Source: a virus (Duplodnaviria; Heunggongvirae; Uroviricota; Caudoviricetes). From it: a stretch of 41,741 bases of DNA. The notes under the pieces are model-generated. The model made no database searches and was not told the origin of the DNA. It was given only the letters and a program-made list of their open reading frames with translations. Positions 23,355-35,630 of this stretch are shown piece after piece. The translations under genes and the position numbers were made by a program. Each line of letters opens with the position of its first letter. Within the stretch, counting starts at the first letter, position 1. Location: the IMG/VR virus record IMGVR_UViG_3300045988_117301. The stretch is one strand, 5' to 3'.

Positions 23355-23845
23355 TACTCCTCCTGCTGTAATTCCTCCTCATCATCCGCACCTGCTTCGG
23401 TCACCCGCAGGGCTATCTGATCGCGCAGATCATCAATAATGGACTGAACACGGCTCACAGCGGCAGGCTGCAGACCGCAGTCACGTTCCAGAATATCCGG
23501 TAATGTCTCCAGCACCTGCACGACCGCTTTTGCCCAGATGGCAAACTCCCGTCTGACATCACTGGCCGGAATGAGTTGTGCCGTTTCCTGTTCGAACTTA
23601 AGACGCTCACGTTCAGACTGATACCAGGCTTTGCGTTCATGTGGATCCATTTCGCCCTCAGCAACCGGCGGTGGTAACCCCATAAATTCAGTCAGAATAT
23701 CGGTCAACCGGTATAGCTTGAGTTTGTCATGTCCACCAGCGGGACGAATGTTTTTCAGTCTTGCCACGACAGTCTGGCGGTGCAGACCAGATAAAGCCGC
23801 CAGTTGATTAATATTCAGCACCAGGTTTTTCAACTCATGATCCAT
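23354..23845 (-). CDS. Terminase small subunit (Nu1-like, HTH DNA-binding)
   Basis: 163 aa with N-terminal HTH (LNINQLAALSGLHRQTVVARL); Shine-Dalgarno GGAGG; about 185 bp downstream of the cosN-like sequence. Confidence 0.75.
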   Translation of the reverse strand: MDHELKNLVLNINQLAALSGLHRQTVVARLKNIRPAGGHDKLKLYRLTDILTEFMGLPPPVAEGEMDPHERKAWYQSERERLKFEQETAQLIPASDVRREFAIWAKAVVQVLETLPDILERDCGLQPAAVSRVQSIIDDLRDQIALRVTEAGADDEEELQQEE

Positions 23846-23899
23846 ATTTCCTCCGGAGAGCTTTAAACATGCATCGTGCGAACAACTTTAAGAAAACGC

Positions 23900-24040
23900 G
23901 TTCGATGTCGAACAAAAAACACTCAATTCGACATGCAAAAAACAAATAACCATTAATAATCAATAAGATGCAAAGATGATGGTGGCCGATAAAAATGCAA
24001 AAACTAGCCTTTTTCCGCGACGCTCCCGCCCCGTGGCAGG
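23900..24040 (-). other. cos region: cosN-like GC-rich element (about 24015-24035) and cosB with inverted TCGACAT motifs (23901-23935)
   Basis: Minus strand reads GGGGCGGGAGCGTCGCGGAAAAAGG..., resembling lambda left end GGGCGGCGACCTCGCGGGTTTTCG; spacing to terS start about 185 bp as in lambda. Confidence 0.5.
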
Positions 24041-24583
24041 CCACCCCACCGGGAGGACCCGTCAGCCTGACAGCCATGACGAACGTCTGATACAGCGCCT
24101 TGCATGAATGGCATCGGGATAATCCAGAAAGGAATAGCATCGTGCCCACAAGAATCTGTGTGAGTATCCTGTTTCTTCCACCCCCGCACAGGACTGGCGA
24201 GCATGAGGGACAAACCCGCGAACCATAAACGCGGTAAAAACCCGGTGTGCATCGTTTTTGATTATTCCCGCACACTCTCGCAGAAGGAGTTCCCCGTCGG
24301 GCTACGGTCTCTGTTAATACGGGAATACGGCGACGATACAGCGCATGATGTGTCAGGCTTGAATACCTTTATCCGTTAAAAGGGATATCAGTTAAGTTAT
24401 CCCGTGTAGGGTATAAGCCATTGTCGAGACCACTCATTGAATGGCCTCTGCAATAACCGATGTCTTTCCATCAGTCCGCCACCACAAAGAATCTTTTTTG
24501 CCATAAGGCTGGAGGTTCATCTTTCAGTGGCTGCCAGTGTTATTTCCCCACTTACTGGCTTGGGTTGTTTCGCTGTACTGCCG

Positions 24584-25126
24584 TTAATTGGTGAGTCCGG
24601 GGATTACGGTTTGCCCGTGCTGTTCAAGGCGTTCAATTCTCGCCAGTAGCTGAGGCTTCTTAATTTTTCCCCAGCGATTAAGCAGGCGGCCTGACATGCT
24701 GGCAACATCCTTCTCTTTCATGTACTCCAGCATTACGGCATTTCTCTCTTCTTCAAATTGACGATGACCAACCTGAAGCATGGCGTACATCCAGTTGAAT
24801 GCGTTGATGTAAGCAATTTTGATACGCATTGCTTCTTTTTTGGTGTAGGACATAACCAAAAGCATCAACCCATCCTTGCGGAGACGGTAGAATTTTTGCG
24901 GCTTACCATTCTGTAACTCATTGTTTTTATAGCAAAGCTCAAAATTGAGCTTTGTATCAAACTCAGGAGGGCAAGCTTCTATGGTTCGTTCAATGTCACG
25001 AACCACGTTCTTCGGCAGCTTTCCAAATGCTTTTGCCACCATAAAAGAATCTGTAACCGGATCGTTGTTTGCTACAAAAATTAGGTCTCTGAAATCTATA
25101 TCGTTAACAACGGTTGGGTAGTTCAT
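24584..25126 (-). CDS. Rha-family phage regulatory protein (moron between lysis and packaging genes)
   Basis: 180 aa; N-terminal FVANNDPVTDSFMVAKAFGKLPKNVVRDIE matches the Rha domain signature. Confidence 0.75.
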   Translation of the reverse strand: MNYPTVVNDIDFRDLIFVANNDPVTDSFMVAKAFGKLPKNVVRDIERTIEACPPEFDTKLNFELCYKNNELQNGKPQKFYRLRKDGLMLLVMSYTKKEAMRIKIAYINAFNWMYAMLQVGHRQFEEERNAVMLEYMKEKDVASMSGRLLNRWGKIKKPQLLARIERLEQHGQTVIPGLTN

Positions 25127-25473: not shown

Positions 25474-25941
25474 TCATCGAAGGCATTGCGTCCTGATGTA
25501 TTCCTGAAGCGTTCTCAGTGCTGTCTGGTCTCTGATGATTCCGTCCCGGATACCGAGAACGTTTCGTCCAGCAACTGGAGAGAGTTCGACGGTGGCATCA
25601 TTGCCCATGCCGGAGGCGCTGGAGGTTTCGGCTGAGGATGGCACAGAGCATTTTCCTTTGACGAGCACCCGACCACCATTATCAAGCTTGCGCCGAAGAG
25701 CATCATTTTCAGCTTTCGCATCAGCCAACTCCTTCGTGTATTTAGCATCGAGTACATCAGCAGCACGCTGGCGTTGCTGCATGTCAGTAATGGTGGCGGT
25801 CGCCTGCTTCAGCTCACTGACTTTTTTATCACGCTGTTCTTTGTAGGCGATGGCGTTATCACGGTAATGATTGACCGCCCACGACAGGCAGACGATGATG
25901 CAGATAACCAGAGCATAAATAATCGCGGCGACTCTGCTCAC
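25474..25941 (-). CDS. Rz: Spanin inner-membrane subunit Rz
   Basis: Start GTG 25941 overlapping endolysin stop (GTGA); (V)[33 protein letters not shown]... closely matches lambda Rz as recalled. Confidence 0.85.
25515..25721 (-). CDS. Rz1: Spanin outer-membrane lipoprotein Rz1, embedded in +1 frame within Rz
   Basis: [21 protein letters not shown]... with lipobox VVGC and Pro-rich PKPPAPPAW, like lambda Rz1. Confidence 0.75.
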
Positions 25942-26471
25942 TGATCTATCCCCCAACAGGCTAATGCGCTTTCCTGGTCACGACGAATAACCTGTCCATA
26001 GCAGTTATTTGAACGTATGCGGCAATCGCGCCCACCATCTTTTATCCACCAGCGAATCGCCTCGCATGCACTCTTACGATCACCGGCATTCAGCCGCTTA
26101 TAAAACGTCGACGGGAAACACTTACCGGGGCCAATGTTATAGGGACAAAATGACGCTATACCCGCTTTCTGTGGTTCGGTCAGTGGTACTTTAATATTGC
26201 GCTCCACCCATGCCAGCGCCTTATCACGTTCAATAGCGTTAACCTGGTCGCATTTTTCCTTCGACAGCTTCATTCCCGGTATGACGGGCTTACCATCCAC
26301 CATTGTGGCACCACGACAGATGGTCCATATACCGGAACCATCGCGGTATGCCGTAGTGTGGTTACCCTCTTTTTCATCCAGAAACTGGTCAAGTATTTGA
26401 GGAGCAGACGAGCCTGCAGCAATCAGCGCCAGAACGGCAGCCGACAGGCCGTATCTGATTTTTGCGTTCAT
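25938..26471 (-). CDS. SAR endolysin (T4-lysozyme-like muramidase with N-terminal signal-anchor-release domain)
   Basis: 177 aa; N-terminal weakly hydrophobic Gly/Ala-rich segment [18 protein letters not shown]; lysozyme core; partner of a pinholin. Confidence 0.9.
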
Positions 26472-34261: not shown

Positions 34262-34482
34262 GCTGCACCTCCGAGATGCTTCATGTTTTTTCCGGAGCAA
34301 AAGGCTATAAGCGGCATACTGATGCGGTAATTACGGCCCAGCGGTTCACAAATCACCTTCTGACATTCACGGTCAACCAGGCTGACACGTAGAACATGCC
34401 CTGCAGGCGTGGTGTACCACTGACCAGGACGAGGACAACGGAAAGTCTGATTGGTAAACCGTTTGAAAATATTCCGGATCAT
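34258..34482 (-). CDS. Hypothetical small protein (translationally coupled)
   Basis: 74-aa ORF whose start and stop both overlap neighbouring genes (ATGA overlaps). Confidence 0.4.
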   Translation of the reverse strand: MIRNIFKRFTNQTFRCPRPGQWYTTPAGHVLRVSLVDRECQKVICEPLGRNYRISMPLIAFCSGKNMKHLGGAA

Positions 34483-35630
34483 TTGCGCCCCCTTACCTCT
34501 GAAGGGTTCAGCGACAAATTTATGAGGCAGGCCAGTGCCGAAGCATCATTAATATAGTCATACAAGCTAACAGCCAGCGGAGATTCGGCTTTTGCCAACA
34601 TAGGATAAAGCTGCTGCAGCCAGACCTGATGAATTGATGAAATGTAGGAATAGAGAACGCTGGCGTTATGTGCAACGTCGCTCAGTACAGAGGGATTTGA
34701 AAGCTGTTTCTCCATCTGGTTAAAGGCATTGATGTATGCCTCTTTGAACTGGGCAGCACGTTTACCCGTGAACCCCATAGCAAGAAACGCAAAGCCGTCG
34801 CGGGTTATTTGATAGCAAGGTAGTTTGCGGCCTGTGCAATCGGTGTAATCACTCACCGAAAAATTGCGGGCAGTGAATGATGCAGAGCATTCAAGCGTGC
34901 GGATCTTTTTCAGTACATCGTCATGACGTTTGGAGAAGAAGTTGGCAACAGCCAGGGATGAAGTAACAGCCTGACCATCAACGATGGCAATTTCAGGTTG
35001 AGTGAGGGTTGGGATCGTAGCCATGATGGCAGCCTCTTTGGTGATTTTTAATAACTCACCACCAAGGCTTTCCACGACCTTATTGGTGGTGAGACGTACA
35101 GGGGTGGAAATACCGGTCACCAAAGAACCCGGCCCAACCGAAGTTGGCCCTGCACGCCCCACCATAATTTGGGCGTAATGCTGCTCATTACACAAAAAAA
35201 CCGCAAGAGCGCGGTTGTGCGCTTTGGTGAATTCCGGGTTTCCACGCCCGGCACCCGCTTTATAAGGTGCCTGAACAGTGTAACGTCCCGGAATGGCAGA
35301 ATCAATGTGCTGGTGGTCCTTCACACTCAACAAAATCATGCCTGAATTTCCACAAAGGACTAAAGCACTCATGCGGGTAGTCTTTGCGAAGATAGATAAC
35401 GCGCTGTGTTTCTGGCTCCCAACGAATAACATGGACATAAAGCCCTCTTCCGTCACGAAACCAGCGGTTAAGTTCCTGCACAACTCGCCCCCCACAGTCA
35501 GGTAAAGTTCTCTGTGGTTACTTACAGCCAGGTGATTTGGTAATCTGCATTCATACCGTAACAACAGGTGTTCAGCGACACTGACCACCAGCTGTTGCGA
35601 CAAACGGTTATTTGCCGTTAAACTGTTCAT
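34479..35630 (-). CDS. Rha-family regulatory protein with a 200-aa in-frame N-terminal extension of unknown function
   Basis: ATG 35630 overlaps cII-like stop (ATGA); internal ATG 35027 with Shine-Dalgarno AAGAGG precedes the Rha-like part (MATIPTLTQPEIAIVDGQAVTSSLAVANFFSKRHDDVLKKIR...). Confidence 0.6.
   Translation of the reverse strand: MNSLTANNRLSQQLVVSVAEHLLLRYECRLPNHLAVSNHRELYLTVGGELCRNLTAGFVTEEGFMSMLFVGSQKHSALSIFAKTTRMSALVLCGNSGMILLSVKDHQHIDSAIPGRYTVQAPYKAGAGRGNPEFTKAHNRALAVFLCNEQHYAQIMVGRAGPTSVGPGSLVTGISTPVRLTTNKVVESLGGELLKITKEAAIMATIPTLTQPEIAIVDGQAVTSSLAVANFFSKRHDDVLKKIRTLECSASFTARNFSVSDYTDCTGRKLPCYQITRDGFAFLAMGFTGKRAAQFKEAYINAFNQMEKQLSNPSVLSDVAHNASVLYSYISSIHQVWLQQLYPMLAKAESPLAVSLYDYINDASALACLINLSLNPSEVRGRK

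Follow-up and report, generated by a model that had tools for sequence, protein, structure and literature searches.

Lambda-like cos sites, the natural variation of their cosN and the complex architecture of cosB are established (PMC4669245, PMC9026076). In lambda-like phages cosQ, the left half of cosN and the CG dinucleotides flanking the nicks are conserved, and cosN bp 7-12 are naturally variable and tolerate mutation (Feiss et al., PMC4669245). Phages 21 and N15 have a common cosQ and cosN and derive their specificity from pairs of TerS recognition helix/wing and R boxes, and Gifsy-1, which is listed with the phages whose cohesive ends are lambda-like, deviates at cosN bp 8, 9 and 11 (PMC4669245). 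R3 of lambda occupies bp 50-65 (PMC9026076). For the Cylindrospermopsis phage Cr-LKS3, 9-nt 5' cohesive ends flanked by lambda-like bases were reported (PMC9303873), and for phage LLS the cos was inferred on the grounds of TerL similarity and of a putative cos in mEp213 (PMC12315714). Phages with a TerL of the gpA family are placed in the cos-type, 5'-overhang class (Casjens-type classification cited in PMC12315714).

The site described here lies in the window, by which we mean the whole stretch of DNA that was analysed (41,741 nucleotides; IMG/VR record IMGVR_UViG_3300045988_117301). The whole genome of PhiR40_1 (42,251 bp) is ~98-99.5% identical to window positions 46-41704, and the outermost ~45 bases at the beginning and ~37 at the end of the window are absent from the PhiR40_1 record. 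Judged by this similarity, the mEp460/Gifsy-2-like lambdoid phage in the window would be essentially Escherichia phage PhiR40.1. The window has the order of a prophage (att to att) and its cos is therefore internal. PhiR40.1 is a plaque-forming phage that was employed in plaque assays, and since the window represents about its whole genome, the cos found here should be functional. We consider it very probable that the site is the functional cos of this phage and that it works as the cos of lambda does. The initial annotation had proposed cos-type packaging, and this proposal is supported by the gpA-family TerL, the lambda-family portal, the cosN-like site, cosQ, an AT-rich cosB, the right place among the genes and the starts of the cdtI and Tritos records. 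The site is an ordinary, expected feature and a further example of the known lambda-like cos family.

Along the minus strand the genes for lysozyme, Rz and a Rha-like regulator are followed by cos, terS, terL and a lambda-family portal gene, and ~740 nt without genes on this strand separate the Rha-like gene from terS (Table 1). This is the placement of lambda-like sites, i.e. after the lysis genes and directly before terS, where the late morphogenetic operon begins. The packaging and head genes are all intact. In an E. coli prophage that is 100% identical to the window, the head genes further on include a ClpP-protease/capsid fusion of the Gifsy-2 type and are followed by lambda-like tail genes. 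A promoter scan of positions 23700-24700 found none. An ORF of 146 aa with a GTG start (23835-24275, minus strand) spans cosB, cosN and cosQ; the PhiR40_1 record has a 'hypothetical protein' over this stretch and RefSeq PGAP makes no call there. The ORF is almost certainly spurious, because virion DNA would split it in two. Upstream of cos, a stretch of ~230 bp (24167-24400) recurs with 88-97% identity in over 100 lambdoid phages, Stx1/Stx2-converting ones among them, and the match carries no annotated feature.

Table 1. The cos region and adjacent genes of the window (cos bp in brackets; slashes mark predicted nicks).
Feature	Sequence	Position in window	Strand	Basis or remark
terL, 700 aa		21252..23354	-	gpA ATPase PF05876 (E 8.5e-72); gpA endonuclease PF20454 (E 3.7e-85)
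terS, 163 aa		23354..23845	-	Pfam DUF1441 (E 4.6e-44); PHROG 141 'terminase small subunit'
R1-like box	TTCGACATC	23912..23904 (120-128)	-	other repeat arm; inside palindrome GTTCGACATCGAAC (23900..23913)
R2-like box	CATGTCGAA	23927..23935 (97-105)	-	inverted; holds one repeat arm
IHF-consensus site (I1-like)	CATCTTATTGATT	23958..23970 (62-74)	-	complement of WATCAANNNNTTR, 1 mismatch
R3-like box	CCACCATCATC	23975..23985 (47-57)	-	forward copy of putative TerS box
Spacer cosN-R3	AAAAAGGCTAGTTTTTGCATTTTTATCGG	23986..24014 (18-46)	-	nearly invariant in enterobacterial loci whatever the R-box type
cosN nicking region	ACG/GGGCGGGAGCGT/CGCGG	24015..24034	-	lambda match and family alignment
Predicted 12-nt 5' cohesive end	GGGCGGGAGCGT	24020..24031	-	lambda match; cdtI/Tritos record starts
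cosQ-like heptamer	GGGTCCT	24054..24060 (-28..-22)	-	putative packaging-termination signal by lambda match
Rha-like regulator gene		24584-25126	-	upstream of cos
Rz		25474-25956	-	upstream of cos
Lysozyme gene		25938-26471	-	upstream of cos

The centre of the site reads ...GACGGGTCCTCCCGGTGGGGTGGCCTGCCACG GGGCGGGAGCGT CGCGGAAAAAGGCTAGTTTTTGCATTTTTATCGGCCACCATCATC... on the minus strand; the right end of lambda is ...ACGGGTCCTTTCCGGTGATCCGACAGGTTACG and its left end is GGGCGGCGACCTCGCGGGTTTTCGCTA... A lambda-like end ~185 bp before terS had been noted in the initial annotation, and indeed GGGGCGGGAGCGTCGCGGAAAAAGG is present at 24032..24008 (minus strand), at a distance of 186 nt from the terS ATG at 23845. 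The 12-mer is the same as GGGCGGCGACCT of lambda at 8 of 12 positions, with a left half that is identical (6/6). The differences are confined to positions 7, 8, 9 and 11, all inside bp 7-12, which agrees with the pattern of Feiss et al. (PMC4669245). Both flanks are as in lambda, ACG preceding and CGCGG following the 12-mer, and the cosQ-like heptamer lies 22 nt from the predicted top-strand nick in the window and 23 nt in lambda. The complete patterns are GGGTCCT-22 nt-ACG/GGGCGG GAGCGT/CGCGG for the window and GGGTCCT-23 nt-ACG/GGGCGG CGACCT/CGCGG for lambda. The nicks are predicted between 24032 and 24031 on the minus-strand (top) sequence and between 24020 and 24019 on the opposite one.

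The motif ACGGGGCGGNNNNNTCGCGG occurs without mismatch only once in the window (the mean in shuffled sequences was 0.08 even with 2 mismatches allowed), and GGGTCCT-N18-28-CGGGGCGGNNNNNNCG likewise occurs once, compared to 0 of 100 shuffles. Overall similarity was rejected as evidence: Smith-Waterman alignment of lambda cos with the whole window scored 23 vs a shuffled-query mean of 24.8. As this local alignment is at chance level, the significance of the site rests on motif, spacing and position. An inverted pair GGTGGCC/GGCCACC around cosN was dismissed as chance; it is off-centre to the nick and its right arm is unconserved in cdtI-type loci. An Rfam search of the cos region gave no match.

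Deposited records bear on the position of the physical ends. The GenBank records of cdtI and Tritos start exactly at GGGCGGGAGCGTCGCGGAAAAAGGCTAGTTTTT, i.e. at the cohesive end GGGCGGGAGCGT, and end with ...GGGTCCT(T/C)CCGGTGGGG..CCTGCCACG, i.e. ...CCACG; deposited genomes thus already have an identical cosQ-cosN at their ends. These starts may be convention and not measurement. The record of Hafnia phage yong2 begins directly after the homologous 12-mer, and in the LLS record the homologous 12-mer GGGCGGCGCGCT is annotated as '5' extended single-strand cohesive site'. We found no published end-mapping for PhiR40.1 or close relatives, including cdtI, Tritos, mEp460 and LLS; measured ends are absent from the Tritos, mEp460_4F5 and Ayreon papers, and the Tritos paper is silent on ends. 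From the match to lambda and the record boundaries, virion DNA would be expected to carry a 12-nt overhang of 5' polarity produced by nicks at the predicted positions. The mEp460_4F5 record (LR595868.1) begins 5 nt ahead of the predicted nick, with CCACG, reads GGGCGGGAGCG-CGG and lacks 2 nt precisely where the second nick is predicted (...GCGT/CGCGG...). An artefact of assembly at a physical end of the DNA may explain this, which would be a weak hint of reads stopping there. IMG/VR contigs that end at the site were discarded as evidence for physical ends, as nearly all are prophages inside bacterial contigs.

Between cosN and terS lies the AT-rich cosB. Its first part, the spacer up to R3, contains A/T tracts at intervals of about one helical turn, which suggests a role in bending. 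The R3-like box and R3 of lambda are equally far from cosN, but the box is a weak copy that matches R1 at just 5/9 positions. The candidate TerS boxes conform to a 9-bp consensus, tTC(G/A)NCA(T/C)(C/T). Inverted TCGACAT/ATGTCGA motifs at 23901-23935 had been put forward in the initial annotation as plausible TerS sites, and they are part of a perfect 8-nt inverted repeat, ATGTCGAA (23905-23912) and TTCGACAT (23927-23934) as read on the plus strand, with arms 14 nt apart. The repeat by itself is only marginally unlikely (~0.1 expected by estimate), and its support comes from the comparison with related loci. There the two arms take the R2 and R1 positions in a conserved R3-I1-R2-R1 layout and co-vary with each other and with the N-terminal domain of TerS, which supports the assignment of the inverted boxes as TerS sites. 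The anatomy first drawn for the site thus had cosN and the R2/R1 arms in place; it missed the R3-like box, the IHF site and also cosQ, the last of which lies beyond its coordinates. By sequence and comparison, the window cosB has candidate R3, inverted R2 and R1 boxes and an IHF-consensus site between R3 and R2; R2 and R1 are ~23 bp apart in the window vs ~45-50 bp in lambda. A triple direct repeat of TTTGCAT (bp 31, 58 and 93) was rejected as a TerS box, since only its first copy is conserved in relatives.

Membership of the window TerS in the Nu1 family found no support: there was no Pfam Nu1 match, BLASTP against Nu1 returned nothing, and hhalign gave a weak alignment of TerS residues 9-52 on Nu1 wHTH residues 2-47 with a probability of 9%. 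In the AlphaFold model (mean pLDDT 75) the N-terminus consists of strand, helix-turn-helix, hairpin (wing) and helix, followed by long helices. Fold searches with TerS gave no significant match and the best local Foldseek matches were MerR-type wHTH domains; among PDB chains the TerS profile found only insignificant HTH matches and no Nu1. The DNA-binding domain of Nu1 is a MerR-like wHTH, and a resemblance of the modelled TerS N-terminus to it is plausible. The window TerL is 25% identical to gpA of lambda over nearly its full length (BLASTP, E 3e-19).

In comparison with lambda, the window has the same cosQ heptamer and the same ACG/GGGCGG....../CGCGG pattern with 12-nt spacing, a first putative TerS box ~47 bp from the nick, an IHF-consensus site between the R3-like and the inverted R2-like box, terS starting at bp 187 (191 in lambda), a gpA-family TerL and a lambda-family portal. 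It differs in its R boxes, which are unrelated (TTCGACATC in the window vs the CGTTTCCTTTCT type in lambda), in a DUF1441 TerS that has no detectable sequence similarity to Nu1, and in the low identity of its TerL. Phages 21 and N15, unlike the window, have a TerS of the Nu1 family, and the cosB of N15 is 'simple' with one critical R site, whereas that of the window is of the complex three-box type. The phages cdtI, Tritos and mEp460 have an identical cosQ-cosN and first 33 bp, the same TerS family and the same layout; TerS family and layout are also common to LLS/mEp213. The box types of cosB differ among these phages, being CATC-type in the window (TTCGACATC), CACC/CACT-type in mEp460 and quite different in cdtI. 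Gifsy-2 shares the DUF1441 TerS, the head type and a perfect inverted R2/R1 pair (CAGTGTCGAA/TTCGACACTG) with the window, but has AGGTACT as cosQ, 14 nt between the cosN flanks and CACT-type boxes. Cr-LKS3 has a DUF1441-like TerS with 37% identity over 79% of the query and lambda-like flanking bases; it differs from the window in its 9-nt overhang (GGGCTCGCG), its unrelated host and its GC-rich genome.

For a comparison across the family, 18 DUF1441 proteins were aligned and 42 genomic loci were obtained from these (Enterobacterales, Halomonadaceae, Marinobacter and others). The cos regions upstream of terS were aligned for 28 DUF1441-terS loci; IHF sites were counted in 26 distinct regions and R2/R1 pairs in 21. 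Nearly all loci keep the order cosQ-cosN-spacer-R3-IHF-R2 (inverted)-R1-terS. The cosQ heptamer carries GGTCCT in 17 of the 28 regions and GGTACT in 9, and is followed after ~20 nt by a cosN-like segment in which G(-1), G2, G3 and C13-G16 are invariant and bp 7-12 vary. The spacer after cosN is strongly conserved as GGAAAAAGGCTAGTTTTTGCATTTTAT. A triplet-repeat box stands at the R3 position (CATCATCATC, CATCACCACC or CAGCAGCAC), the inverted R2 box is GATGTCGAA, GGTGTCGAT or TGCTG..., and the forward R1 box lies just upstream of the terS start or overlaps it. The IHF consensus WATCAANNNNTTR is found with at most 1 mismatch, in the same place and orientation, in 19 of the 26 distinct regions (2.5 expected), and perfect matches number 11 (0.14 expected). 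In 9 of the 28 regions, that of Gifsy-2 included, the cosQ position holds A(A/G)GGTACTCC and not GGGTCCT. This may be a natural cosQ variant; natural variation of cosQ was described as 'not apparent' (Feiss et al. 2015, PMC4669245). There is also a second cosN subtype, CCGAG/GGGGCG...ACA/CGCGG.

Comparison of the reverse complement of R2 with R1 as 9-mers in the 21 distinct loci showed that T2, C3, C6 and A7 are invariant and that position 8 is concordant in 21/21 (T/T in 12, C/C in 9). R2 and R1 are more identical within their own locus than across loci (permutation p = 0.0004), and R1 is closer to the R3 region of its own locus than to those of other loci (permutation p = 0.007); all these co-variation counts are phylogenetically non-independent. 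Box switches do recur in unrelated backgrounds, i.e. between the window and the mEp460 type (TerS 87% identical) and in Gifsy-2, Citrobacter and Serratia loci. A further box type in IMG/VR, ATGTTAA/TCAACAT, represents a compensated change. The box type tracks TerS residue 13 and the wing, with N accompanying T-type and S or T accompanying C-type boxes: T-type loci encode a TerS with LNINQ and a ...(D/N)xKLKLY wing, and C-type loci one with LN(I/V)(S/T)Q and ...SNLKLY. The TerS of the TCAACAT type has AGICRQT in place of SGLHRQT, and box position 4 (G or A) appears to track TerS residues 19-22 (SGLH or AGIC) in these alignments. The window TerS has a T-type N-terminus joined to an otherwise mEp460-type protein. 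It is a mosaic, identical to the mEp460-type TerS from residue ~60 to the end and differing within the N-terminal 45 residues at positions 13, 21, 26-27, 31, 33-35 and 40-42.

Conservation of the cosQ+cosN pattern extends to hundreds of E. coli genomes. A 28-nt stretch, made up of the 12-nt cohesive end and the next 16 nt, is shared by 115 IMG/VR loci, where it is joined to at least 4 cosB/TerS types (mEp460 59, cdtI 36, window 19, TCAACAT 1). Since one stretch is joined to so many types, cosB and the DNA-binding domain of TerS travel together, as would be expected if the boxes are targets of TerS. A sharp mosaic junction is visible at about cos bp 33-40, with a common cosQ-cosN and first ~33 bp on one side and differing cosB and TerS N-terminal domains on the other.

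We propose that packaging of this phage proceeds as follows. The N-terminal wHTH of the DUF1441 TerS would bind R3 and R1 in forward and R2 in inverted orientation (Table 1), with TerS dimers on R3 and the inverted R2 across an IHF-induced bend and R1 as an accessory site. The complex of TerS and IHF would anchor the gpA-family TerL on cosN, where it would make two nicks 12 bp apart and so create a new left end with GGGCGGGAGCGT as 5' overhang. Packaging would start from the cosB/terS side, run toward lower window coordinates and end at the next cos, with GGGTCCT, 22 bp upstream of the nick, probably needed for the termination cut. Lambda terminase reportedly 'measures' 47±2 bp (title of Higgins & Becker 1994), with which the start of R3 in the window, 47 bp from the nick, agrees. 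It is conceivable, at somewhat under even chances, that DUF1441 TerS represents a second lineage without sequence relationship to Nu1 and combines the R3-IHF-R2-R1 design known from lambda with a readable specificity code, with cosB and the DNA-binding domain forming a mosaic cassette behind an invariant cosQ-cosN.

Three other explanations have to be weighed against a lambda-like cos. The site could be a cos whose cut geometry differs from that of lambda, with another overhang length or register, e.g. 9-10 or 14-16 nt. Precedents exist in the 9-nt overhang of Cr-LKS3, which has a related TerS, and in Gifsy-2, where the conserved flanks ACG and CGCGG are 14 nt apart, and the mEp460_4F5 record starts with CCACG 5 nt early and is without 2 nt at the second nick. 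Still, the spacing between G(-1) and CGCGG is exactly 12 nt in 27/28 aligned loci, the lambda-like CG flanks are retained, and the predicted nicks coincide with breaks in three independent records, those of cdtI and Tritos at the first nick and that of yong2 at the second, which makes a different geometry unlikely. That the prophage is defective and the site a cos relic, or that the phage packages by headful (pac) and resembles lambda only incidentally, we regard as extremely unlikely: the window is in prophage order and its sequence leaves activity unproven, but the near-identical PhiR40.1 forms plaques, no packaging or head gene is damaged, the TerL is of the gpA family and thus of the cos-type, 5'-overhang class (PMC12315714), and the cosQ+cosN pattern recurs in the E. 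coli genomes mentioned above and in more than 115 IMG/VR loci.

The repeat ATGTCGAA/TTCGACAT and the palindrome GTTCGACATCGAAC could also form an RNA hairpin (terminator or attenuator) or serve as operator for another regulator before terS. A consensus scan does flag TGTTCGACATCGAACG followed by CGTTTTCTTA on the minus strand as terminator-like, and the perfect 8-nt repeat taken alone is of the marginal improbability given above. However, the scan of 23700-24700 returned 2 terminator-like sites vs 1.1 expected, which is not significant, and in most relatives R1 is non-palindromic and overlaps the start codon of terS (TTCATCATCATG), so that no terminator is possible there. A terminator would moreover stand in the way of late transcription, which in lambda reads through into terS and has to do so here. 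Both the terminator and the operator are at odds with the third, forward copy at the R3 distance of lambda from cosN and with boxes that co-vary with the DNA-binding domain of TerS and do not preserve a stem. A hairpin or foreign operator is therefore very unlikely, and we keep to the reading of the boxes as TerS sites within a lambda-like cos.

For annotation, the likely physical left end is 5'-GGGCGGGAGCGT at window position 24031, with packaging toward terS. Proteins of the DUF1441 family, which are of 'unknown function' in Pfam and RefSeq, gain a role and are actually small terminases. The comparison also yields candidates for the TerS boxes and for an IHF site in a group of prophages that is widespread in E. 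coli and Salmonella, with Stx, Cdt and Gifsy phages among them, which bears on predicting which terminase can package which phages and satellites. The current understanding of packaging is unchanged by this. A dedicated survey of the natural history of cosN, Vahanian et al. 2017, is said to exist and is cited in the literature. We did not find the box consensus and the co-variation of boxes with TerS described for the DUF1441 family in the literature; they are a modest extension and not a new kind of system. If the DUF1441 specificity code is true, this family would provide several packaging specificities of natural origin, much as the lambda/21/N15 system does.

Lastly, two Rfam models matched elsewhere in the window above their gathering score, C4 antisense RNA (RF01695, 83.6 bits) at 35082-35169 and isrK (RF01394, 67 bits) at 35194-35270, both on the minus strand. 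They lie within, or at the 5' end of, an ORF of 383 aa (34479-35630, minus strand) that is a Rha-family regulator in a related E. coli prophage. The region resembles a c4-ant immunity module of the P1/P7 type, here within a lambdoid phage.
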